Shown one piece after another: positions 531 through 53,545 of a stretch of 64,000 nt of DNA. Both the position numbers and the translations under genes were made by a program. The stretch spans positions 75,970,473 to 76,034,472 of the forward strand of contig NC_092349.1 of assembly GCF_963676685.1 (NCBI RefSeq), read 5' to 3'. Numbering within the stretch: the stretch's first letter is position 1; each line of letters begins with the position of its first letter. The stretch is from Mytilus edulis (lineage: Eukaryota). The notes below the pieces were generated by a model. That model did not search any database. It was not told the origin of the DNA and was given only the letters and a program-made list of their open reading frames with translations.

Positions 531-799
531 TGACTTATATCTAAAAACTATTTCTTTAATTTCTGTTAAAATAGTATAACTCCATATAAAATAAAGTTTT
601 GAGGGTAACAGTTGTTGGTTATTGGGTCAATATTCAGTTCTTGGGAGTTCCCTAGAAATTGTGGTACCCTCCTATATAGTTGTGGACTTTTACATCCTTT
701 GGTCTCTGGTGGGGTGTTTTATCATTGGGTGTTTTATATTTGTTGTTTTGGGGCATTTTTTGTTTGCTATGTGCATATGTGGTATGGATCTTGCTTATT

Positions 800-41470: not shown

Positions 41471-42067
41471 TATGTAAAACAGCAACAAACGACAACGTTA
41501 CCACTGAATTACAGGTTCACGAATAGGGACAGGCAATTTTAGAATGTGACCGAACCAAGTATATATAAGCGAACGCCTTACACCCCTCTTTTTTCTGTAG
41601 AGTATACATTCGGTTTTTTAAAAAAAACCGCCAATAACTACCCAAATGTATCTTGAAGTCTTTGATCATGAATATTTAAAACATTTTAATTATAATAATA
41701 TATGTGAACCTCTATATCTTTGAATTAATCATTTTTTTTTTTATTTTTTTAAAGATATGAATATTTCAAATTGACTTACCTCTGAAACTGGGTTGCAGTT
41801 CTCTCTTATATTCGTCTTGACACCATTCAAAGTTTGAACAGATAACAACACGCTTAAACACAAAGCCGATAAAAAAATACAGCAGTCCATTATGTTCTAA
41901 TTGGAAAGTAAGAAACACATGGTTTAAAAATATACATGTAAAAAATGCGCACGTGTCTAGCAGGCGTGGCTTCGCAATGCGATTAAATATAACCAGTGGT
42001 GTGACATTGTAGCAGTCCACTATTTTTTTTCTTCTAAATCGAGATCAAACGGTCATATTACGCAATA

Positions 42068-42190
42068 ATGTCGGGTTCAGAGAGATGGAAAATCATGATT
42101 GAAAACGGAAGACTTTGTGTAGAGGAAAATGGTAGATATTTTGAGGACATCGACAATGTTGGAACAACAAGAGAATTTGGAATTATCAAG
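42068..42190 (+). CDS. First coding exon (ATG at 42068): MSGSERWKIMIENGRLCVEENGRYFEDIDNVGTTREFGIIK.
   Basis: An ATG followed by an open frame ending at donor AAG|GTGACT (GT 42191-42192). Phase 0 joins the next exon. Confidence 0.6.
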
Positions 42191-42926
42191 GTGACTATAT
42201 AAACATTTTAGTAATTTACAATTTTATTTGGTCAATTGTGGATAAGAAAAGCCATCGGAAAAAAAACTACAAGCTCAACAAACTTGTATTGAATGCAAAT
42301 AAAAATATTCAAATCAAAATAATACATAAAAGTAAAGAGATACTTTTAAGTATAGAGTAGATAACTTTCTATTAAAAGTTGCATTTAACTTATATTAAGG
42401 ACGTCACTAACACAATTAGTGTACTACATGTATACTATTGTTTCTTAACACATTGTTTTGGAGTTGTAAACATAGGAAACTCTAAAAATATAAACTGAAA
42501 TAGTAAAACTGTTTTCTTCTTCTGTATTGAACATTGTTGAATTACATCTTCAAATGTTAGGGCAAGTACATTTAGATTTTGAATTCCTTGACATCATGTC
42601 AGTGTTTTAAACAAAATCATTGATTGATCTTGTACATCTCTCTACATAAATATCTCAACTCTCGTTTTCAGAATGAAGTTTACTTTTATTAATGTTAATC
42701 CATCAATAAGCTGCATATTCTTTATTACATTTACTCTTGTGAAGTAACAACTGTTCATTTTATTGTGGAACGGTCATACAATTCACATTTGTTTTTATTT
42801 TAGACTTAACACATTATCAATCAATACATGTATATTAGTTTTCGTCAATACAGAAATACGACTGTTGGCTTCATGTTCAATGTCTGTCAACGTTCACAAA
42901 AACATGATGTTTTCTTATAATTTAAG

Positions 42927-43047
42927 GTTACATATGAATCTGGAAAAGCAAAAATGTATAGTTTGAAAAACTTATGCGAAGGTCTTGGTTTTGGGCCAGC
43001 TGTCAAGACTCGTTCAGGTTTTATGAAAATATGGAACTCCTTGAAAG
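42927..43047 (+). CDS. Exon VTYESGKAKMYSLKNLCEGLGFGPAVKTRSGFMKIWNSLK(G).
   Basis: Acceptor ttataatttaag (AG 42925-42926) and donor AAAG|GTGAGA (GT 43048-43049). Only one frame is open and the phases are consistent. Confidence 0.6.
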
Positions 43048-44180
43048 GTGAGAAATGTATTTAAAATGTGTGTGTTGTTCTTGTATCATGAGTACATAGT
43101 ATGTGTATGAGTATTTGCTTCTCTTGCATTCGTCACAACTCGGCCGATTCCGTACCTCCATCTAAAGATAGAAGGAGAGTAGCGGTAACTCCGAGGATTG
43201 CCAACTGCTACTCTTGATTTTGACATTTTGTCCGATATTCGGAATCCTCTAGTTTTATCCATGTAGTACCAATAAAAAAAAAAATACACTACCAACCCTT
43301 ATTTTTTTATTCATATTTTTATTACATATAGTTAAACTAGTCATTCATGAAAATCTTATACAATTCTTGTTATTTTTTCATAGTGTTTGAAAGAAAAAAA
43401 GGTACCAATTTTAAATGTGTGAGCATTCTAAGAGAGAATCATTTCCCGCAAAATTTTCAATTGATTATATCTTAAAAACAAAGTCGCGGACCTATTATTT
43501 TTTCCTGCTTTTTAGCCTAGGTTCAGTTATTAATATACTATCAATTTATACCAGTTGATCAAAAAGCTAGTTATTGTCAAAAAGAGAAGCGAACATCCTT
43601 AATCAAACTAAGGCCTTAGTTGCTGTCGTATATATTTTAAACATTGAATTTTTGGCGATGTCAAGAGGCTGATATTGTTTTTAAAAAAATGACTACCATG
43701 AACAAACATTGATAATACCGTATTTCCATGACTAGTAATCCTCGCTCCAAACTCCACTGGACCTCCTACGGCACCCGCTGGTACTTGTAGTTAAATATTT
43801 GATTGTATTCAACAAATTAATTTATGAACTGCATGTACGTGACGCTTATATACCAAATGGTCAATATTAATCATCCGTGTTATTTGCTCTATGGGATGTT
43901 TGTAAAATTTCAACGGAGGCAATGTCTTGGCATGATAATATCAATGAGCTTTTATTCGTATATTTGTCAAGTCTTTGTATGTGTTTTATTTCGTGATAGG
44001 AGGGGGAAAAGAAAAAAAGGTAAAAGGGGGTGGGTTATTGGCTGTCTTTGCCTACAACAATGTACTAGTGGGGTGCGTGTGAGTGCTTTTCTGTGTTTAT
44101 TTGTCCAATTGGACTTGTCGTTTTTTTTACTGAAGAATATAACTGTAGCAAACAAGTTTTAACTATATAATTTTTTACAG

Positions 44181-44264
44181 CAAACGTAGACAATTATCAG
44201 CTACAGACATCTTCAACAGATAACATTGATCAGCCGGAGAACCAAGTTAATATGAATATTTCAG
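44181..44264 (+). CDS. Exon ANVDNYQLQTSSTDNIDQPENQVNMNIS (phase 1 in and phase 1 out).
   Basis: Acceptor ttttttacag and donor TCAG|GTAGAT. Only the phase-1 frame is open, matching the phase of the previous exon. Confidence 0.6.
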
Positions 44265-44692
44265 GTAGATGTGATTCTTTTAATACATATTTGATATTTA
44301 CACACGCTTTCGTGAAATCAAGTTACTAAAGTAATCCATAAATATGATAAAATTCGGATTGAAAAACTCTTACCATAACCAATAATATTAATTCATATTT
44401 TTGCAATAACCCTATAATATTAATTCATATTTTATAAATAAAAGAAGTTATAGTATACTAGTATGCGTATGTGAGATGACAAGTAACGATTCTAGAGGTT
44501 CTATTATCGCCGTATTACATTTACGAATATTTTTTTTTAAATTGCATCTTCGCTTTTCTGCACAAACCCCCATAATACATGTACAATGTTCAAAAGGGGG
44601 GGGGGGGGCTGTATCCGTACAATCTTCAACAATAATGGACAGGCCGGCTATACGGACAAAAGTGCAATCATTAAAAAGACGAGGTACATTTG

Positions 44693-45243
44693 TACGATAA
44701 GGCCCGTTTTTTGGCCCCTCCCCCTATTTTCTTATTTTTCAAAAACTGTTTTGGAAAGCTTGTTATCACGTTGACGTTTGTTTGGATGAACTTCAAAACC
44801 ATTAATTTTAGAAAATGGTTGAGATTACTGGGTTAAAAAGGTATCAAAAACGCCAAATGATTCTTTGGCATTGTTTCTATAAAAAATCTAACACGCGCCG
44901 GAGAAAATAATGGCGATTTAGACAGCAAAAACTGTTATGACATGACATTGGAATTAAAAAAAATCCTGTGCCACGTTGGCGCAGGCACCTAAAAACTAAA
45001 AATTCGTTGTACGGAAGACCTGCAATTTTAAGTGAATGATAATTACAATATTTGAATTATAAAAGGAAGTTTACTCACTCACCTTACCCAGTTGCTAGTA
45101 TTAGTGGTTTTGAAGTTCATCCAAACAAACATTCAAACCTCAGGGAATATTCTAACATAAGACGTAGCTTTCTAAAACAGAATTTGAAAAATGAGAAAAT
45201 AGGGGGGCCAAAAACAGGCCTTATCGTACCAGAATTTCCAGTT
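44693..45243. mobile_element. Foldback element: ~120-bp inverted repeats (44693-44800 and 45105-45243) around a ~300-bp spacer. It lies in an intron of the 42068 gene.
   Basis: gtacgataaggcccgttttttggcccctccccctattttcttatttttcaaaaactgttttggaaagc...gtttggatgaacttc reappears reverse-complemented at 45105-45243. Confidence 0.75.
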
Positions 45244-45584
45244 TTCCTGCCACACCGACTTCTTGCAACAGAGATTGTTTTTGTTTCTGTTATAATTAAG
45301 AGTTTGTTTTTTTTACTATTCACTGAATCATAATATGAGTCATGTGGTCAATTTTATTCGTTGAACTTAGTTCTAAAGCATAAAACATGACGCGGACGTT
45401 ATGATTTTGTTCGAGTATCCGGACAAAAATGATACAAGAAATTTGGTATCTGTTGAAGATTTTTTTTTTTACAAAACATACATTAAAATTAACATTATAA
45501 TAATTGTGTTTGCAAAGTTCCATTCTTTTGTTGTGACAAATACGAAACATCTAATTCAAGATAATGCTTTTTTTCTGTGAATAG

Positions 45585-45716
45585 ATGTACCAGGAGGGGA
45601 GGATTTAACCAGCACTGACGACAATGTAAACACATTGGATAATGTGCAAAGAAAATCCTCGACGCAAAAATCACCAGTCCAAAAGAAATTATTGTCACCA
45701 ATGGACAGTTCTGAAG
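45585..45716 (+). CDS. Exon DVPGGEDLTSTDDNVNTLDNVQRKSSTQKSPVQKKLLSPMDSSE (phase 1/1).
   Basis: Acceptor ttttttctgtgaatag and donor GAAG|GTATTT. The other two frames carry stops. Confidence 0.65.
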
Positions 45717-45980
45717 GTATTTTTTTAATCCTCCTTCTTGCAAACAATTGATCTGCTGCTTCGTAATACTAGTCATGTGAATTCGGCAAACAAAAATCAA
45801 TAGTAAATAAGATATGTATGCAAGTAATATAAAATCTATTGCACTTAATATATATGCTTTTACAATAAAACTGGAAGAGACCAAGAACAAGTTAAAAATG
45901 TTAATGAAAATTATTTACTATTTGAATAAAAACCATAATTACGATGCGAAAATTTTATGTATATTTTTCTTTTGCAACAG

Positions 45981-46112
45981 ATGCATCGACAGTTGAAGAT
46001 ATTCTAGGACGTAGCGTGGGTTCTTGCACTGAAGCGCACATAAATACAGAAGACGCTTCCGATAGCACACCAGTTACAGTGGAGCAGTCAATTTTGGACG
46101 ATTATTTAATAG
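45981..46112 (+). CDS. Exon DASTVEDILGRSVGSCTEAHINTEDASDSTPVTVEQSILDDYLI (phase 1/1).
   Basis: Acceptor ttttcttttgcaacag and donor ATAG|GTATGA. Only the phase-1 frame is open. Confidence 0.65.
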
Positions 46113-46194
46113 GTATGATATACCATCTTCATTCTCTTAATAGGCGCTACTCATGGTATGAAGTATAGAAACTTTTAATATTAACTTTTATACT

Positions 46195-46302
46195 GACTAT
46201 ATGTTGAAGGCCGTATGGTGACCTATTATATTTGTTAATTTGTGTCATTCGGTCTCTTGTGGAGGGTTGTCTCATTGGTTATCATACCACATCTTCTTTT
46301 TT
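46195..46302 (-). repeat. Family A SINE/MITE-like copy (reverse orientation) in an intron.
   Basis: ...gttgaaggccgtatggtgacctat...gttgtctcattggttatcataccacatcttc. Confidence 0.7.
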
Positions 46303-46741
46303 TATACTTGTCTGTTATTTTGACATCGCCAAACATGTTTTATCTCTAGTTGCTGTTTTTGTTTAATGACCATTTAAGAAAAATAATGTGCAAGTCTTAG
46401 TTTTGAACAAACTTGGGGATCGAACACACGATTACAAGGATCACTTCCAGAGGCAAGTTCTCCGAGGATGTTATTTTTTTTTATTGCATATACGGGTACT
46501 GGAAACTATAACCATATCAACTTCAGAAATATTACTTTTACATCAAATGTTCAAACACTTGCTCATTAAGTGAACAACATATTTTTTTTTATATATTTTG
46601 AACTCGAAAAATTACAGCGCCCCCTTACGGTCATTGTCCTCCTGAAGTGATCAAAGTGATCGTAATATAACGACTGGATTATTCGGGTTATTTGAATTGT
46701 TGATTTTCCATTCTAAAGTGATAGCATTTGTTTTCTTTTAG

Positions 46742-47510
46742 GAGACGCATTAAAGGTACATATTCAGAACTTAGTTATACCTGCCGATGATCGCTGTTTT
46801 CGAAATCTGGACACGAAACATGCTCACTGTCTAAAACAATTTTATGAAAATCAGCAAATGTGTCATACAATTCTCATTGGCAACATTGTCGGCGATGTTA
46901 CTACTGATAAAGGTAATTTGTCAAAGTTTCTTCAAGAACCTGGCAAAGTAGCAGTTGAAACTTTAGGTGGTAATCATACAAGACATGCGCTACAATGTTT
47001 ATTCGCAAGCCAAACGAAGCCTATTAGCATGGTAACATGTCGGTTATACAACAAATTACCAGACGAGTTGGCGCTACAATTAGGGTATGAACACAATGCA
47101 TCTAATACATTAGGAAAACCGACAAGTTTTGTTGATTTAGTAAAGATGTTTCGAAAAGAAGCAACAAAAATAGTAGGAGATACAGATATTAGCTGCATGC
47201 AAAGTAGTGAAGTAAAGCAATGGAAAGATATTATATGTACTATTCTAGGGATGGACAGAAAGGCGGAAGAATTTCATAACAAGTACAAGATTGTTTTAAA
47301 AATTGCAAAATCAAAGGATTCCGTATGGAGAAAATTTTTAGAATTCTGTTCCGCTTTCGAAATGAATGAAATTAGAAATACTCCAAGAGGATCCTTAAAG
47401 ATTACACAGTTGAGAGATTTTTCAATGCTTTCTAGTGATAACCAAATACATATTTTGGAAGAAACTTTACAGACAAAAGACTGGAGAGTATTTAAGAGAG
47501 AAGTAGAAAG
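46742..47510 (+). CDS. Large exon (768 nt, about 256 codons) carrying a ParB/sulfiredoxin-like motif (…CHTILIGNIVGDVTTDKGNLSKFLQEPGKVAVETLGGNHTRHALQCLF…). It ends either at the stop TAA 47512-47514 or at the overlapping donor AAAG|GTAAAT.
   Basis: The track shows an ORF at 46858-47514 (218 aa). The frame is open back to acceptor gttttcttttag (AG 46740-46741) in phase 1, matching the previous exon. A long ORF in AT-rich sequence is unlikely by chance. The GGxHxRxA pattern resembles the sulfiredoxin FGGCHRYAA motif and the ParB GERRxRA motif. Confidence 0.65.
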
Positions 47511-48404
47511 GTAAATAAATGCAAATCATGTCGTGTGTACTGGAAAAAAAATTCACTGCACTACATGATTTTCTTAAAACTTGATTTTATATTTGTAACT
47601 TGGTTTGTAAAATATGCTTCATAAAAAAGGCATTCAGCATACATTTACGTTATATCGGGAATATTATTAAAAAAAAAAGAACCGTGGTTTTCGTAATTTA
47701 ATTCACAGTTTAAGGAATAATTGGAGCATTTCATTAACCTTGAGGAATCTCATTTGTAATATTATGATATTAAAAATGAGTTATGAAAAAAGGAATGTAC
47801 ACACCAATTTTTAAAAATTTATCACCTATAAAATTGTTCACGAAAACAAAACACAAAAAAAAACCTAATAAACACCAAGACAAGAATAAAAAAAATGTAC
47901 AGGCAATGTTAATGAGAGACAGCAACCAAACGACACAAATAAACTAAAATTATCTAGAGACAACACATAGCCTTAAAAATATAGGCGGTCTCCATGCACT
48001 TTATCAAGCTCTTAATTTTCCATTATATACATCTTGTGAATAAGTTATACAAAGACTACCAAAGATCTTTCGTTTAATCTAAATCCCCCCCAAAAATGTA
48101 TTTATGAAATGTCAATCGCAAAGTCATCTCGTCAACCTTCTTGATAGGTCGGGTATTTGGTGGTTGATGTAGACTGCAGCCTTGTAATTTTGTAAACTTA
48201 TGTTTTTTTTTTTTGTTTTTAATGTATAATTGGGCTAAAGTGCAATTTCAAAGATCTAATCGATATTTATGGTAATAAGCCCACCTTTCATTTAAAAAAA
48301 AACCGGTATATTGAAATATTACAGAAAAGAGCTGACACTGTACGTACATGTATATCAGTAATGAAGTTACCGACTTAGATAATATCACTGGATTTATTTT
48401 GTAG

Positions 48405-48482
48405 TGTAAGTTCAGATCGAAAGAAAACGATTGGGAAAACGAAAGCAGATCCGTCAGATGTTGACAGAAAGATCAATGAAAA
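48405..48482 (+). CDS. Candidate small exon (…SVSSDRKKTIGKTKADPSDVDRKINEK), phase 2 in and phase 2 out.
   Basis: Acceptor ttattttgtag and donor AAAA|GTATGT. The phases are compatible with a splice from 47510 and into 48957. Weak evidence on its own. Confidence 0.3.
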
Positions 48483-48956
48483 GTATGTTAGCATTTTAAA
48501 CGAACATACAGAATAAGTTTCATGCATCCATTTATGACAATATTTTGTTCAGTTTTATCATTTCACGGGATTTCCAAATATCATTGATTTATATGATTGC
48601 GTACTTTAATGTTTGAACATCATTTGGTGCATTTCCGAACGTGCATCTAAATTATAAATTCCTACTGGCGGCACAAAACTGCCATTTTGATTTATTTTAG
48701 TTTACGATATTATTTCAAAACTGTCCTTTTGTTAATAACTGTTAAGAGATATTTTTTTAAATTTTAAGGTTTTAATTTGTTGATGAAACTTTTCAATATT
48801 ATATACCTGCAGACTCTCAATATTCTGTTGAAAGCTGGTTTAACTGTAGTAATAAGAGAATAGTTCACTCCTCCTCCATTACAAGTATTTAAAATGTGCC
48901 TTTGCTTATTTGAATTAACCCATTAAATTATTGAGCATTTCATTATATTTATCTAG

Positions 48957-49260
48957 TGAGTGTAAAATAAAACAACTGACTGCCGAAAGAGAAAAATTGG
49001 CAACTACTTCATCAACATTAAAATCAAAGTTGACAGAAGAACAAAAGAAAACAGAGGACTTCGAGACATTGTTGAATCAAGAAAGGAAAAAATGCAGTGC
49101 ACTTGAAACTAAATTACAGCAACTGAGGAGATCAGAGAATGAACTCAAAGTTGTCTTGGATAAGCAGATTGATAAAAATGAAAAATCTAGTAATCTGCTA
49201 CAAGTTGAAAAAACAAAATACCAAACCCTGGAAGAAATGTACAATAAATTGTTAAGTTGA
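48957..49260 (+). CDS. Coiled-coil exon (…ECKIKQLTAEREKLATTSSTLKSKLTEEQKKTEDFETLLNQERKKCSALETKLQQLRRSENELKVVLDKQIDKNEKSSNLLQVEKTKYQTLEEMYNKLLS). The 3' end is ambiguous: stop TGA at 49258-49260 versus the weak donor AA|GTTGAG.
   Basis: The track shows an ORF at 48931-49260 (109 aa). Acceptor tttatctag (AG 48955-48956). It has heptad-like charged/hydrophobic periodicity. Confidence 0.5.
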
Positions 49261-49609
49261 GTACTCTGTTTTTTAGGGCTGTAATAGCCCTTTTGACAAA
49301 ACGCTTATTATTTTGTTGATGATATATGGAATAATATTCTGCAACAGACTTACGATAGTTATCAGATCACATTAATGATGCATAAAGAGTTGTTCAATTG
49401 ACCATGCAGTCTGATGATCTTGATCTTGCATTACATAATTAATCAAACATATTTACCAGCTTAGAATAAATACCAGAGACAACAAAGAAAAATAATTTAT
49501 ACAAGAAACATCTTACATGTTATGTACTTGTATTTAAACATAATAAGAAAATATTCCTTATTCAAATGTTCTCAATACGCAAACTCTGAAAACAATGATG
49601 TTTTTACAG

Positions 49610-49711
49610 GAAGAAGCAAAAGCTTGTTTAGAAAAGAAAGTTCAGGAATTTGAAGAATCTAGTAGATGTCAACATATTGAAAAACACAAAAGCCAAGTAG
49701 ACAACTCTGTT
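49610..49711 (+). CDS. Exon EEAKACLEKKVQEFEESSRCQHIEKHKSQVDNSV. Alternatively a first coding exon starting at ATGATG 49595.
   Basis: Acceptor gtttttacag (AG 49608-49609) and donor GTT|GTAAGT (49712-49717). Phase 0/0 joins the downstream Tudor exons. Confidence 0.5.
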
Positions 49712-50117
49712 GTAAGTTTTATAACCTACGTATATATTTACCTTACAATTAAAAAAAAATGTCCTTTAATTTTTGTTAATTGTTTGTTCAACAAATGATA
49801 TTCACTTTGTTGGTCTGAGTGAACGTAATTAACTTAAAATCGGGAAGATGTGTTGAGTTTCGTACGTAATTCTTCTTTAGAAGTAAGTTACAAAATAATG
49901 TTGACCCCTGTGTTCATAATTTCTCATTTTTTAAATTTGGTCTGATTCTGTTATTCATATGCATTTGCTTTGCAAATGAATGATTTTCATTGGATAATTT
50001 TACAGTTTTTCCTTTTTATTATATTTTATTATAAATTTTAGTTCCAACGTGTGTATCGTCACGTTTGTTTCATCAACTATTATCTATATCAGTCTATATC
50101 AAGTTTACGTTAAGTTT

Positions 50118-50582
50118 TTATGCACCACCTACGATAGTAGAAGGGCATTACATGTATGTTTTCTGGTCTGTGCATCCTTCCGGCTGTACGTTCGTTCGTT
50201 CGTCCGTCCGTCCGTCCGTCCGTTCGTCCCACTTCAGGTTAAAGTTTTTGGTCAAGGTAGTTTTTGATGAAGCTGAAGTCCAATCAACTTTAAACTTAGT
50301 ACACCTGTTCCTTGTGATATGATCTTTCTTATTTTTAAACCAAATTAGACTTTTGACCCCATTTTCATGGTCCACTGAACATACAAATTAAAAGTGTGAG
50401 TTTCAGGTTAAAGTTTTTGGTCAAGGTAGTTTTTGATGAAGTTAAAGTCCAATCAACTTGAAACTTTTCAGGCCAAACTAGATCTTTTACCCAATTTCAC
50501 GGTCCATTCAACATGGAAAATGGTAATGCGAGTGGGCATCCGTGTACTTTGGATACATTCTTGTTCAATATAGATTTGTATA
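50118..50582 (+). mobile_element. Family C MITE, full copy with an internal duplication of the block caggttaaagtttttggtcaaggtagtttttgatgaag.t.aagtccaatcaactt.aaactt.
   Basis: Head gcaccacctacgatagtagaagggcat, a (CGTTCGTTCGTCCGTCCGTCCG) core, the duplicated block at 50228-50300 and 50404-50470, and tail gcatccgtgtactttggatacattcttgttc. The ORFs at 50049-50375 here are rejected. Confidence 0.8.
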
Positions 50583-50707
50583 TTAAGTTTGTTTGCTGTT
50601 GATGACTACATATTACTGTAACTGTCTGTGACTTGCCATTGTCTTTAGAAAACTTTTCATAATATCTCTTAAAAAGATATACACAACATATTTGTATATA
50701 TTTACAG

Positions 50708-50803
50708 GTATCTGGTAGAGATTTGGCTCCAAAACAAAAACTAAAAAATGACTGCAGTCACAGTGACAACTTAAACAAGAAGAAAAGAAGGATGAGTTCA
50801 AAG
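50708..50803 (+). CDS. Exon VSGRDLAPKQKLKNDCSHSDNLNKKKRRMSSK with a basic, NLS-like KKKRR stretch.
   Basis: Acceptor tatttacag (AG 50706-50707) and donor AAG|GTAAAT (GT 50804-50805). Length 96 nt, phase 0/0. Confidence 0.5.
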
Positions 50804-51221
50804 GTAAATAAAAGAATAAAAAATGTGTACAAACAACTATAACAAAATCTCTGATTACAGAATAATTCTGGACAGTATTGGCGTAAATAGACAGTGGGCA
50901 AATTTGAACATTCTGGACATTTCTGCCTCTCTAATATTTTTTTCTATCCAGAGCAATTTTGAAAAAAACTGATAAATCTGGCAATGTAATTTCATAGAAG
51001 ATTTGCTAAAAGGTTTACAGATAACGACAATACATGTTGTACGATATTTTTAACCTACTTTTAGGACGAGTTTAACTGCTGGACAGGTGGAGACTAGTCG
51101 GCCATGTCTTTAAACCTTGTCAATCTTTCGGGTCTAGACACAAAGAAATACACGGTGTGGTATAAACTCTATCATATGTTTTGTGCAGTTGTAAGATGCT
51201 TATTTTTCATTTATGTTGTAG

Positions 51222-51309
51222 GAGTTTGAAGTTGGTACGTCTGTTGAAGCATTTTGGTATCCAGACAAGTGTTGGTATACTGCAAAAATACTAATGAAGA
51301 CAGGAAAAG
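51222..51309 (+). CDS. Tudor-like domain exon, first part: EFEVGTSVEAFWYPDKCWYTAKILMKTGK(G).
   Basis: Acceptor ttatgttgtag (AG 51220-51221) and donor AAAG|GTAAGT (GT 51310-51311). The pattern GxxVxAxWxxDxxWYxAxI is typical of Tudor, SMN and 53BP1-type barrels. Confidence 0.65.
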
Positions 51310-52347
51310 GTAAGTACTGTTTTATGAAAACAAAATTTGGAGGGCAAATGTTATCAGATATAATATCAGACTGTACAAAGATAATTCTGTCGTATAAAGA
51401 AATAAAAGTGGAAATGTTTTGTACTCAATCAACACATGTACATATAAGTTGAAAAATAATCATATTAGTAAAAGTTTTCAATTCATGGTAGCTATCCTGA
51501 TGAAACAATTCAACAAAAAAGACGACGTTTATTTTTACAGAGGAGCACTTGTACTAAACTATCGTTTCGGTATATATTTATTTAATAAACTTTTTTAGTT
51601 TATGAACTTTGTTTTAAATCCATTTGCAAAGAGAACGCCAAGTATTAAATTTACGGTAATACAGAATTTTTTCAAAAGTACTACTTTTAGGCGTTGCATC
51701 GTCCTGAACATGCTTGTACTATTTCCCATTGGACGTCATTTTTTAGGCTTGTCACACTTTTTTTACGTTTTATAATGTTTTCTTTAAAATGAGCTAACTG
51801 CGAATGAGTTTTTTTTTTATAAAAAGGACTTCATAATGGTCGAGAAGATAATAATCCAAAGACTCAATATGCTGATTTTTTTATGAAAGAAACAGTAGTT
51901 GCACCAGTAAACCGGTTAATCAGTTGATCAGTTAGGGTCAAACATTCAGTCAAACATTAAGTCACATTAAGTCTAGGTCAAAGTTAAGGTTAGGTCAAGC
52001 ATATTTGACTTCACAAATCTAATACTTAATTTAACAAGGACCAGAGCAGAAGATATTGGCATGTAGTCATGTATTCTAAAACCAGGATTTATGACACTTA
52101 ATCTATCTGAAAAAGTACCGATAAAAGCATTACATGCTATATAATATATAATCACACATACTCCTGTATTTATCAGTAATTTATATGGCCAGGGGTACTA
52201 TTTTGAACCGACAAAAATACATCTTATTAATCGAAGTCAGTTACTCTTTACTAGTATCATTATAGTTTCAACATTCAAGTAAAATAGTCCACAATTTATT
52301 ATTCATTAAGACTCAGATCTTTTTAAAAAAAAATGATTTTTTTACAG

Positions 52348-52433
52348 GCTATGAAGTAAAGTATGATGTTGATAAATTTGTCAAAGATCTCCCCTTAAAG
52401 TATGTGAGAGCGGAAAAAAATTCTACAGAATAG
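52348..52433 (+). CDS. Tudor-like domain exon, second part, terminal: (G)YEVKYDVDKFVKDLPLKYVRAEKNSTE then a stop.
   Basis: Acceptor tttttttacag (AG 52346-52347). Phase 1 joins the previous exon. Stop TAG at 52431-52433. An AATAAA lies about 600 bp downstream, near 53042. Confidence 0.65.
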
Positions 52434-53329: not shown

Positions 53330-53545
53330 GTAACGTTTTCACGTTGTTCTTGGTCTAAGAACCAAAAAGCAAATTTACGCATTATATTTTACATTCAATT
53401 TTGTTCTTGGTCTAAGAACCAAAAAGCGATATACGCATTATATTTTACATTCAATTTTGTTCTTGGTCTAAGAACCAAAAAGCGATATACGCATTATATT
53501 TTACATTCAATTTTGTTCTTGGTCTAAGAACCAGAAAAAATAAGA
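53330..53545. repeat. Tandem array: 61-bp unit, about 3.4 copies (gttcttggtctaagaaccaaaaagcgatatacgcattatattttacattcaattttgttc), each unit containing a GGTCTAAGAACC hairpin.
   Basis: Near-identical units begin at 53347, 53408, 53469 and 53530. Related GGTC..GACC motifs occur at 53585, 53707 and 53866. Confidence 0.85.

Follow-up and report, generated by a model that had tools for sequence, protein, structure and literature searches.

We find that positions 42068-52433 on the plus strand of the window (the whole stretch of 64,000 nt that was analysed, the sequence of which is Mytilus DNA) form one predicted gene of 12 exons with a single open frame of 701 codons, that the 701-residue product combines, in N-to-C order, a ParB/sulfiredoxin (Srx) fold, a helical domain, a coiled coil and, at its C terminus, a Tudor domain (Table 1), and that this architecture recurs across animal phyla in a family that is bilaterian (invertebrate) and previously undescribed. 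Taken as a whole, the reading that we regard as reasonably probable is that of a single 12-exon gene from this undescribed bilaterian family, the product of which would act as a chromatin-targeted, nucleoside triphosphate (NTP)-regulated ParB-like switch.

Table 1. Exons of the predicted gene, in window coordinates (a slash marks the exon-intron boundary)
Exon	Position	Strand	Residues	Phase and splice sites	Content
1	42068..42190	+	1-41	donor AAG/gtgact	ATG at 42068; N-terminal module, first half
2	42927..43047	+	42-82	phase 0 in, 1 out; GT-AG	N-terminal module, second half (GLGFGPAVKTRSGFMKIWNSLK)
3	44181..44264	+	82-110	phase 1-1; acag/.../gtagat	Acidic/polar linker, predicted
4	45585..45716	+	110-154	phase 1-1; from splice sites and open frame	Low-complexity linker
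5	45981..46112	+	154-198	phase 1-1; from splice sites	Acidic linker
6	46742..47510	+	198-454	acceptor tttag/GAGACG, phase 1; donor GAAAG/gtaaat	ParB/Srx-fold domain (~198-320), helical domain (~325-452)
7	48405..48482	+	454-480	GT-AG	78 nt; basic linker SVSSDRKKTIGKTKADPSDVDRKINE
8	48957..49251	+	480-578	5' splice site TTG/ttaagt, T at 49252	Coiled coil
9	49610..49711	+	579-612	phase 0-0; GT-AG	Coiled coil, continued (EEAKACLEKKVQEFEE...)
10	50708..50803	+	613-644	phase 0-0; canonical sites	Basic linker
11	51222..51309	+	645-674		Tudor barrel, first half (EFEVGTSVEAFWYPDKCWYTAKILMKTGK)
12	52348..52433	+	674-701		Tudor barrel, second half (GYEVKYDVDKFVKDLPLKYVRAEKNSTE), then TAG

The exon phases are consistent throughout, with AG at 11/11 acceptors and GT at 10/11 donors, the donor of coiled-coil exon 8 being the sole departure from GT-AG in the gene. 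The original prediction had tied six exons together between 42068 and 47510, and all six were recovered with GT-AG sites and matching phases; exon 3 is probably its sixth exon, and its large exon is exactly our exon 6, for which acceptor, donor and the boundaries in L001 (a genomic homologue from another animal, 58% identical, in which both ends are placed identically) agree. The three peptides that it quoted lie on the plus strand at 46864-47004, 51222-51293 and 52350-52406. Further downstream its chain needed amendment: a 78-nt linker exon had been missed, and once exon 7 is inserted the phases work between exons 6 and 8; the coiled-coil exon is real but ends at 49251, at a non-canonical (TT) donor, rather than at 49254; and 49610-52433 does belong to the same gene but resolves into four exons rather than one. 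Public gene models join exons 6-7-8(-9-11-12), exon 7 being present in P0005, P0006 and P0154 and exon 9 in P0006 and P0154, and the phase-1 junction between exons 11 and 12 (G/GC) reads GKGYEV, as in P0004 and P0154. Exon 10 is found in the M. coruscus model (P0006), is skipped by the M. galloprovincialis model (P0154) and is probably optional.

Toward the N terminus, exon 1 can be aligned with the N-termini of the paralogues P0162 and P0105 and of the amphioxus proteins P0026 and P0032, W7 and G22 being invariant, and exon 2 matches residues 63-84 of P0162 and 62-82 of P0105 (tblastn) and is 92% identical to M. coruscus with zero indels. The ~80-residue module that these two exons encode has no match in Pfam or the PDB and is family-specific. 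Across its 84 nt, exon 3 has just two substitutions relative to M. coruscus and is free of indels, which do occur in the flanking intron; the exon may be optional. Exon 5 is strongly conserved and indel-free in both M. coruscus and M. edulis.

The domain at the start of exon 6 has a ParB/Srx fold. A ParB- or Srx-like core had been guessed from its beta-strand, spacer and GGxHxRxA arrangement, and profile and structure searches both bear this out: when the family was searched against the PDB, the sole matches were Srx structures aligned at the motif, a separate hhalign comparison with Srx gave 86% probability over 86 columns, and Foldseek aligned ParB, Noc and KorB over about 245-270 columns with probability 1.00, spanning the N-terminal and DNA-binding domains, such that the helical domain superposes on the central helical region of all three. 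Of the sequence-profile matches anticipated, Srx was thus obtained and ParB (PF02195, TIGR00180) was not; nor did the family profile yield a sequence alignment with B. subtilis Spo0J. No Pfam or NCBIfam model reached its curated cut-off, the below-cut-off matches being to DndB (Pfam; 5/45 members, E >= 0.0028) and DGQHR (NCBIfam; 2/45 members, best E 2.5e-4). The motif itself, LGGNHTRHA at 46957-46983, conforms to a family signature, E-x-[LI]-G-G-N-H-[TS]-R-x-A, that is near-invariant across the family.

Neither of the two obvious identities applies to this domain. It is not a sulfiredoxin, the catalytic Cys being Asn in essentially all members, which excludes sulfinic-acid repair chemistry. 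Nor is it a canonical ParB: CTP-binding ParBs have an arginine-rich patch, GERRxRA, that is not conserved here. Aligned on Srx, Thr80 stands where ParB has R80 and Srx has R101, and the Arg is displaced by one residue. Because polar, invariant or near-invariant residues stand where Srx and ParB hold phosphate-binding residues (H79 at Srx His100 and H27 at Srx Lys61), the domain may well bind NTP at the strand-to-helix GGNHTR loop. R21 is spaced, as judged by eye, like R39 of ParB box I.

The coiled coil, ~130 residues in total, exceeds chance expectation: hydrophobic occupancy of heptad a/d positions is 0.61 against 0.49 +/- 0.03 in shuffled sequences (0/500 shuffles as high), and the 99 residues of exon 8 contain zero Pro and zero Gly. 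The C-terminal barrel, called Tudor-like in the original prediction, is on sequence grounds a true, PHF20-like Tudor domain. The family profile matches PHF20 Tudor-2 in the PDB with E 1e-11, followed by PHF20L1, UHRF1, KDM4, SMN, LBR, 53BP1 and TDRD3; exon 11 resembles the Tudor domains of paralogues and has sub-threshold matches to the Agenet and Tudor families of Pfam; and the aromatic cage (W, Y, Y, D) is intact, its positions Y and D lying in exon 12 (D being the invariant D39 of alignment A3). The domain is a candidate for methyl-lysine reading and chromatin targeting.

The family comprises 161 representatives at E <= 1e-3. Long relatives occur in bivalves, abalone, annelids, nemerteans, sea urchins and amphioxus; all have the N-terminal module first, then the ParB fold with its helical domain, then the coiled coil and lastly the Tudor domain, and every one of them is annotated as uncharacterized. 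The architecture is kept in Mercenaria, Mya, Mytilus californianus, four species of Haliotis, three species of Branchiostoma and others, and at least six phyla have it in gene models from RefSeq or elsewhere; in Mytilus itself, P0154 joins the same exons. The combination had been put forward as undescribed, in agreement with our literature search, which found no paper on the ParB-fold/coiled-coil/Tudor proteins. A 2025 survey of ParB folds applied a Pfam cut-off higher than the family scores.

In the reading that we favor, the ParB/Srx domain would bind NTP at the GGNHTR loop, the coiled coil would form a parallel dimer and so take the role of ParB's C-terminal dimerization domain, and the Tudor domain would dock the dimer on methyl-lysine marks of histones or other nuclear proteins, giving a ParB-like switch, perhaps a clamp, that is regulated by NTP and targeted to chromatin.

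The most serious competing possibility, less probable than this reading yet far from negligible, is that the locus is a decaying or dispensable copy, the fusion protein not being made from the present haplotype and the frames being recent relics. The donor of exon 8 is TT here but reads GTAAGT in M. coruscus, in M. edulis and in the reference sequence of M. galloprovincialis, and translation would stop short of the Tudor exons both on read-through, after ...YNKLLS, and when a cryptic GT one base upstream is used. The derived G>T change at +1 probably keeps exon 8 from being spliced normally to the Tudor exons in the present allele; if the donor fails, the product would be a 580-residue protein with the ParB fold and coiled coil and lacking the Tudor domain. 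Orthologues in M. coruscus and M. edulis have frameshifts, in-frame stops and deletions affecting exons 1, 4, 6 and 9: in the former the ATG is missing along with part of exon 1, exon 4 carries a change of -14 nt, and exon 6 contains a TAA and +4/-1 changes; the latter has +4/-1 in exon 4, +2/+1 with a TAG in exon 6, a degraded exon 9 and no counterpart of 47473-48408. The M. galloprovincialis reference shows small indels, and the locus looks fragile or dispensable. Against decay, all 12 exons are open, and 701 stop-free codons would be unlikely in a long-dead gene; the main exon is under purifying selection (dN/dS 0.17, dS 0.20); and a near-identical intact exon-6 frame occurs in seven public sequences (P0001). 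The T at 49252 may be either a rare allele or an error of sequencing, and faulty assembly may account for some of the lesions in the other long-read genomes.

We consider it unlikely that the ParB/Srx domain is an enzyme, whether an ATP-dependent phosphotransferase or kinase like Srx, SerK or SbnI or a nickase of the kind found among ParBs, brought to a methylated protein or chromatin substrate by the Tudor domain and coiled coil. Besides the Asn in place of the Srx catalytic Cys, the ParB-like helical domain is kept, unlike in Srx, SerK and SbnI (~250 columns aligned over both domains), and the coiled coil, which we infer to dimerize, matches the layout of clamp-type ParBs. The working model that we consider most likely is a switch, possibly a clamp, and not a sulfiredoxin-type enzyme.

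Just as doubtful is a role in genome conflict, as a gene carried along by a transposon, one domesticated from a mobile element, or a defence factor that evolves fast; the ParB fold would then serve to recognise or mark the DNA of the element, a function proposed for ParB-like accessory proteins reported from algal transposons. Such a reading is about what the gene does biologically and does not conflict with the architecture given above. The patchy range (members in molluscs, annelids, nemerteans, echinoderms and amphioxus, but no detected ones among vertebrates, arthropods or nematodes), the several paralogues per genome (Dreissena has eight proteins of at least 90% identity on four chromosomes), the lesions frequent in orthologues, the defence-island nature of the nearest sequence clade (DndB/DGQHR) and the giant-virus DndB-like proteins among the BFVD matches would all suit such a role. 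They are countered by the 11 spliceosomal introns, by synteny over >12 kb in at least three Mytilus genomes, by the purifying selection on the main exon, by the absence of recurrent PADLOC model matches and by the lack of transposase, integrase, reverse transcriptase or other mobile-element domains in all 20 long members scanned (0/20). That there are two genes, a ParB-like one ending at TAA 47512 and a separate coiled-coil/Tudor gene, is highly improbable: the exon-6 frame does run into that TAA, ORF callers on short contigs give a stand-alone 218-residue ORF (P0001) and the M. edulis and M. coruscus annotations have two models at the locus, but the TAA is intronic and overlaps a strong donor (AG/gtaaat) conserved in L001, the phase-compatible exon 7 and models P0005, P0006 and P0154 span the junction, the two assemblies with split models have frameshifts or deletions at those places, and the same N-to-C domain order occurs within single proteins of at least 10 genera.

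Among known systems, Srx (PDB: 1xw3, 3hy2, 6ky4) is a ~110-residue single-domain enzyme with catalytic Cys99, which is Asn in the present family, whereas the 701-residue mussel protein adds a helical domain, a coiled coil and a Tudor domain. DndB/DGQHR (PF14072, TIGR03187) are the sole Pfam/NCBIfam families matched by more than one member, and the motif D-G-Q-H-R is the closest to G-G-N-H-(T)-R, but DndB regulates phosphorothioation operons in prokaryotes, and neither dnd context nor such domain partners accompany the animal genes. Other eukaryotic ParB-fold proteins are Tox-ParBL1, which includes metazoan members (Zhang et al., 2012; PMC3482391), and the ParB-methyltransferase transposon accessory proteins of algae (PMC12477816); these differ in signature ([ST]...[NT][RT][RT]), in range (pan-eukaryotic or algal) and in partners (toxin modules or a DNA methyltransferase), and both lack a coiled coil and a Tudor domain. 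The mussel barrel is a single ~55-residue Tudor of the histone-reader type, not the extended TDRD/SN type, and has its W/Y/F(Y)/D cage positions in common with PHF20/PHF20L1 Tudor-2, 53BP1, UHRF1, KDM4 and SMN, all of which lack a ParB/Srx fold. Compared with the ParB/Spo0J, Noc and KorB CTPase clamps (PDB: 7bnr, 7ol9, 7nfu, 8qa9), the present family is eukaryotic, intron-rich and Tudor-bearing, is only ~10% identical in sequence, has GGNHTR in place of GERRxRA with no arginine patch and, unlike ParB, lacks the LG[KR]GL ParA-binding motif and a ParA partner; common to both are an N-terminal ParB/Srx fold with a helical domain after it, a conserved strand-loop-helix motif at the box II position, a conserved Arg after the first strand with box I-like spacing, and a separate dimerization element, which in the present family would be the coiled coil.

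Twelve plus-strand exons, when joined, form a single open frame of 701 codons, in a window with an AT-rich base composition (∼32% GC) and few long ORFs, as is usual for eukaryotic genomic DNA. All six upstream exons of the original prediction were recovered, the big exon (exon 6) with the same splice sites, and the three peptides quoted there were found at the positions assigned to them. The coiled-coil exon and the block at 49610-52433 can indeed be joined to these upstream exons, but the coiled-coil exon ends at 49251 rather than 49254 and the block consists of four exons; in addition, a 78-nt exon had been overlooked (exon 7), which passes the phase of exon 6 on to the coiled-coil exon. The TAA at 47512, considered as a possible end of the gene, is the stop of an open frame that coincides with the gtaa of the exon-6 donor. 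Because the exon-6 acceptor and donor are found at identical codon positions in a 58%-identical genomic homologue from another animal (an unrelated sequencing run), the boundaries of this exon are real and old. Predicted proteins of Mytilus galloprovincialis, M. edulis, and M. coruscus match its product at 96-100% identity. Over 46.7-54.2 kb the window is 98-99% identical to UYJE01010266, the reference contig of M. galloprovincialis, and it can therefore be assigned to the M. edulis species complex. Exons 1 and 2 encode a module of ∼80 residues that is shared with the N-terminal ends of Mytilus paralogues and amphioxus proteins; W7, G22, F63, F73, and W77 are invariant in the alignment, which supports the ATG at 42068. 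The module (aa 1-82, window 42068-43047; W..F...NG ... F..KW, from mussels to amphioxus) has no sequence match in Pfam or the PDB.

Exons of the gene, in window coordinates
Feature	Positions	Strand	Remarks
Exon 1	42068-42190	+	ATG at 42068
Exon 2	42927-43047	+	
Exon 3	44181-44264	+	
Exon 4	45585-45716	+	
Exon 5	45981-46112	+	
Exon 6	46742-47510	+	acceptor tttag/GAGACG, phase 1; donor GAAAG/gtaaat
Exon 7	48405-48482	+	78 nt; used in public protein models P0005, P0006, P0154
Exon 8, coiled coil	48957-49251	+	
Exon 9	49610-49711	+	
Exon 10	50708-50803	+	phase 0-0; skipped in P0154
Exon 11, first Tudor half	51222-51309	+	
Exon 12, second Tudor half	52348-52433	+	ends in TAG

Public models of the locus are fragmented or chimeric (P0003, P0004, and P0007 from M. 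edulis; P0005 and P0154 from M. galloprovincialis). P0154 takes an internal Met as its start and lacks exons 1-5. P0004, named "LRP1B," and P0007 are fused to LDL-receptor class B (YWTD) repeats, which are absent from the window, and we reject this fusion as a gene-model chimera. P0003 uses the ORF at 46387-46566 as an exon; it does not fit the phase chain, is missing from the paralogue architecture, and was likewise rejected. Just 5' of exon 6, a ∼230-nt block (46372-46602, followed by an alignment gap at 46602-46691) forms a separate aligned segment in both other Mytilus species and contains the ORF CASLSFEQTWGSNTRLQGSLPEA, taken as an exon in the M. edulis annotation; the block is probably a repeat or a conserved intronic element, not coding sequence. 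The intron between exons 3 and 4 carries inverted-repeat arms (44720-44836 and 45070-45206; 41 nt at 90% and 61 nt at 80% complementarity) that have the appearance of a foldback or MITE-type insertion and that account for mirror-image spurious ORFs on the two strands ("KIGGPKTGL" and "KIGGGAKK"). The intron that separates exons 9 and 10 contains a (CGTC)n microsatellite (50189-50229), from which spurious ORFs arise on both strands ("SVRPSVRP" and "GRTDGRTD"), and ∼0.9 kb 3' of the stop codon there is a 56-bp tandem repeat (53344-53538; 3.4 copies, 97% identity), also present in the M. galloprovincialis reference contig.

The original prediction had read the motif in the big exon as ParB/Srx-like and expected an HMMER search to recover such domains. 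As a single sequence, the exon matches neither Pfam families nor PDB sequences, so this simple test would fail, and word-indexed protein searches returned only five to six close relatives, even with a 45-sequence profile. The family was revealed only by an exhaustive HMMER search of 1.84 billion representatives, which yielded 161 relatives at E ≤ 1e-3. GGNH[ST]R is present in nearly all of them and close variants of it in the remainder (consensus E-x-[LI]-[GD]-G-N-H-x-R-x-A). The glycine-rich, phosphate-binding strand-to-helix motif conserved in the ParB/Srx superfamily (GERRxRA / GGCHR / DGQHR) occurs here in a new variant form. In the 45-sequence alignment, R21, G77, H79, and N119 are invariant, and P14, H27, E73, G76, N78, R81, A83, Y103, L106, H118, and R138 are at least 90% conserved.

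With two sequences as input, AlphaFold leaves the N-terminal (ParB) half of the big-exon product at pLDDT <50; with the 45-sequence alignment and no templates, it returns a highly confident ParB/Srx-fold model (pLDDT 95.9, pTM 0.90), with the beta-alpha-beta-alpha-beta-alpha-beta core of that alpha+beta fold and the E-x-[LI]-G-G-N-H-[TS]-R-x-A motif placed at E72-76/H78-89. When the model was compared with the PDB by Foldseek, the first 26 places were all taken by members of the ParB/Srx superfamily (probability 0.99-1.00), with an abrupt drop to noise thereafter; among them are ParB from M. xanthus, C. crescentus, and B. subtilis (with CDP or CTPgammaS), Noc, KorB, PadC, pNOB8 ParB, and sulfiredoxin. 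In a viral structure library, the matches were phage ParB/Spo0J and giant-virus "DNA-sulfur modification-associated" (DndB-like) proteins, over ∼250-270 columns. Profile comparisons point the same way: all six weak matches of a PDB profile search are sulfiredoxins aligned at the motif, hhalign places the family profile on human Srx with 86% probability over 86 columns, and DndB (Pfam) and DGQHR (NCBIfam) are the sole families matched by more than one of the 45 members. Against a single B. subtilis Spo0J sequence, hhalign gave no alignment (probability 0.3%). Given the structural matches and the independent agreement of the sequence profiles, we regard the assignment of the big exon to the ParB/Srx fold as solid, in line with the original reading of the motif.

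At the other end of the protein, the split Tudor-like barrel proposed earlier is borne out. The exon 11-12 junction reads ...MKTGKG/YEVKYD..., within an SH3-like barrel of ∼55 residues, and a profile of seven family barrels identifies the second Tudor domain of PHF20 in the PDB with E 1.1e-11 over 51 columns, followed by PHF20L1, UHRF1, KDM4B/C, SPF30, SMN, LBR, 53BP1, and TDRD3; all 60 of the matches listed are Tudor, Agenet, or chromo-barrel proteins. Single-sequence Tudor matches in Pfam stay below threshold (Agenet, 24.0 versus 27 bits), and UniRef labels the M. galloprovincialis models "Tudor domain-containing protein." The alignment predicts an aromatic cage formed by W (AFW), Y (WYTA), Y (VKY), and D (DVD), with the D invariant among the seven barrels; we take these residues to align with W97, Y103, F120, and D122 of PHF20.

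The exon between the two domains was rightly called a coiled coil: its 99 residues include neither Pro nor Gly, and hydrophobic occupancy of the heptad a/d positions is 0.61 versus 0.49 ± 0.03 in shuffled sequences (0 of 500 shuffles reach 0.61). Its donor is AAATTG/TTAAGT in the window and AAATTG/GTAAGT in the M. coruscus, M. edulis, and M. galloprovincialis reference sequences, which makes the T at 49252 a derived substitution of the invariant first base of the intron (+1). Read-through past exon 8 ends the protein at ...YNKLLS*, and a cryptic GT one base 5' of the donor shifts the frame, with a stop after five codons; the predicted outcome of either route is loss of the Tudor domain. The T at 49252 may be a real null-for-Tudor allele or a sequencing error. 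A search for the read-through ORF in public assemblies, meant as a gauge of how frequent the TT allele is, returned no record, but the start-codon call of the query is uncertain and the result therefore says nothing about that frequency.

Other copies of the locus look damaged as well. The M. coruscus orthologue (CACVKT020005623, aligned to window 40.8-53.7 kb) lacks the beginning of exon 1, start codon included (window 41898-42135), is 14 nt shorter in exon 4, and carries +4/-1 indels with an in-frame TAA in exon 6. In the M. edulis orthologue (CAJPWZ010001978, same interval), exon 6 has +2/+1 indels with a TAG, window 47473-48408 is missing, exon 9 is degraded, and no exons 1-3 are seen in the 10 kb that lie upstream. 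In the M. galloprovincialis reference, exon 8 and the terminal A-run contain small indels. Some of these lesions may be assembly errors, and in the M. coruscus and M. edulis assemblies the gene is probably a pseudogene or mis-assembled; jointly, the lesions suggest a dispensable, fast-turnover gene. Exon 6 compared with M. coruscus gives dN/dS 0.17 (dS 0.20), that is, purifying selection.

The original prediction placed ParB-like, coiled-coil, and Tudor parts in one protein, and the 701-codon frame has its counterpart in full-length relatives from Mercenaria (P0013/P0155), Mya (P0060), Haliotis (P0015), Mytilus (P0160, P0162, P0105; M. californianus and M. galloprovincialis paralogues), and three Branchiostoma species (P0026, P0032, P0029). 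All share the order of the window model: N-terminal module, low-complexity linker, GGNHTR domain with helical domain, coiled coil, and C-terminal Tudor-like barrel. The Haliotis relatives, from four species, are at least 90% identical. Further members occur in Dreissena, Saccostrea, Solemya, Mactra, the annelid Owenia, the nemertean Tubulanus, and the sea urchin Diadema; one match in an amoebozoan transcriptome may be contamination, and no member was seen in vertebrates, arthropods, or nematodes at the sensitivity of the search. Databases annotate all members as "uncharacterized" or mis-name them (LRP1B, tag-278, CENP-E-like, dentin sialophosphoprotein-like).

Gene structure, folds, and shared architecture are demonstrated; for the mechanism, we infer a switch. 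The coiled coil would bring the protein into a dimer, which the Tudor domain would dock on methyl-lysine-marked chromatin or other methylated nuclear proteins; the ParB-fold domain would bind an NTP at the GGNHTR loop, and, in the manner of ParB, Noc, and KorB, the dimer would alternate between an open and a closed form through nucleotide-dependent engagement of its two N-domains, the closed dimer possibly surrounding DNA held by the helical domain. We hold the architecture by itself to be highly probable and architecture and switch taken together to be reasonably probable; the switch mechanism specifically is a tentative proposal. An unlikely reading is that the bacterial NTP-gated DNA clamp of the ParB type has in this family its first counterpart in eukaryotes: a coiled-coil dimer would close its ParB-fold N-domains once nucleotide is bound, so as to entrap DNA or slide along it, and the Tudor domain would load it at methyl-lysine-marked chromatin.

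The damaged-looking orthologous loci and eight Dreissena polymorpha proteins (P0022 and P0168-P0174) with at least 90% identity on four chromosome-scale contigs, a sign that a family member was recently duplicated to dispersed sites or is mobile, form a pattern that fits a conflict-related or mobile-element-associated role, kept as a rival reading of the biology, as well as it fits a housekeeping chromatin role; no transposase-type domains were detected in the 20 long members scanned, and PADLOC gave no recurrent defence-system match. For the switch itself, the main mechanistic rival is an enzymatic role, phosphotransfer or nicking, of the ParB-fold domain. A division of the locus into two genes is excluded, since single full-length relatives have the same part order.

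A literature search found no description of a ParB-fold/coiled-coil/Tudor family, which agrees with the earlier view of the architecture as undescribed; Tox-ParBL1 (Zhang et al., 2012; PMC3482391) and the algal ParB-methyltransferase transposon accessory proteins (PMC12477816) are different families. Recent work counts the ParB fold as a third class of nucleotide switch (CTP, also ATP or GTP), known so far from bacteria, archaea, phages, and plasmids. A 2025 survey of the ParB-CTPase fold, which concluded that the small enzyme Srx is its main representative in eukaryotes, used PF02195 with its gathering cut-off for the eukaryotic search and would miss the present family because the family falls below it. 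We conclude that the ParB/Srx superfamily here gains a new family with a new architecture, in which a ParB fold with a ParB-like helical domain and a putative dimerisation element is joined to a histone-reader-type Tudor in molluscs, annelids, nemerteans, echinoderms, and amphioxus. It is a concrete candidate for nucleotide-gated chromatin binding in animals and a case study of a prokaryote-type module built into a eukaryotic chromatin protein; if the clamp analogy were true, it would be a nucleotide-switch chromatin reader without analogue in model organisms, given that no member was detected in vertebrates, flies, or nematodes. Standard domain databases are blind to the family and Pfam by itself overlooks it, so profile- or structure-based annotation is needed.

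Compared with its known relatives, the mussel protein is not a sulfiredoxin. Srx FGGCHRYAA and the family motif align residue for residue, but the catalytic Cys99 of human FGGCHR falls on Asn78, and Srx is a single-domain protein of ∼110 residues that acts on peroxiredoxin, whereas the window protein is multidomain. Nor is it a canonical ParB, since it lies below the PF02195 and TIGR00180 thresholds (PF02195 ParBc matches neither the window protein nor any of the 45 members even at E ≤ 5; one member matches TIGR03764 at E 0.016) and has GNHTRxA in place of the GERRxRA arginine patch, with N, H, and T presumably at the positions of ParB E78, R79, and R80 in the Srx register; parS sites and a ParA partner, further hallmarks of that group, do not apply to an animal genome. 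By sequence, DndB/DGQHR is the nearest clade; the window protein is not a member, having GGNH(T)R in place of DGQHR and no match to PF14072 or TIGR03187, which are matched, below threshold, by 5 and 2 of the 45 members, respectively. Polar residues are kept at positions that bind nucleotide phosphates in this fold (His79 for Srx His100, His27 for Srx Lys61); Arg21 follows the first strand with, in an alignment read by eye, the spacing to the next Asp of the ParB box I arginine, and an "HN" pair (118-119) lies in the next helix. Srx, SerK, and SbnI have no helical domain, whereas the mussel protein keeps one (aa ∼325-452), which in the predicted model co-aligns with the NTD+DBD of ParB, Noc, and KorB over ∼250 columns (TMq 0.45-0.55), and the counterpart of the C-terminal dimerisation domain of ParB would be the coiled coil.
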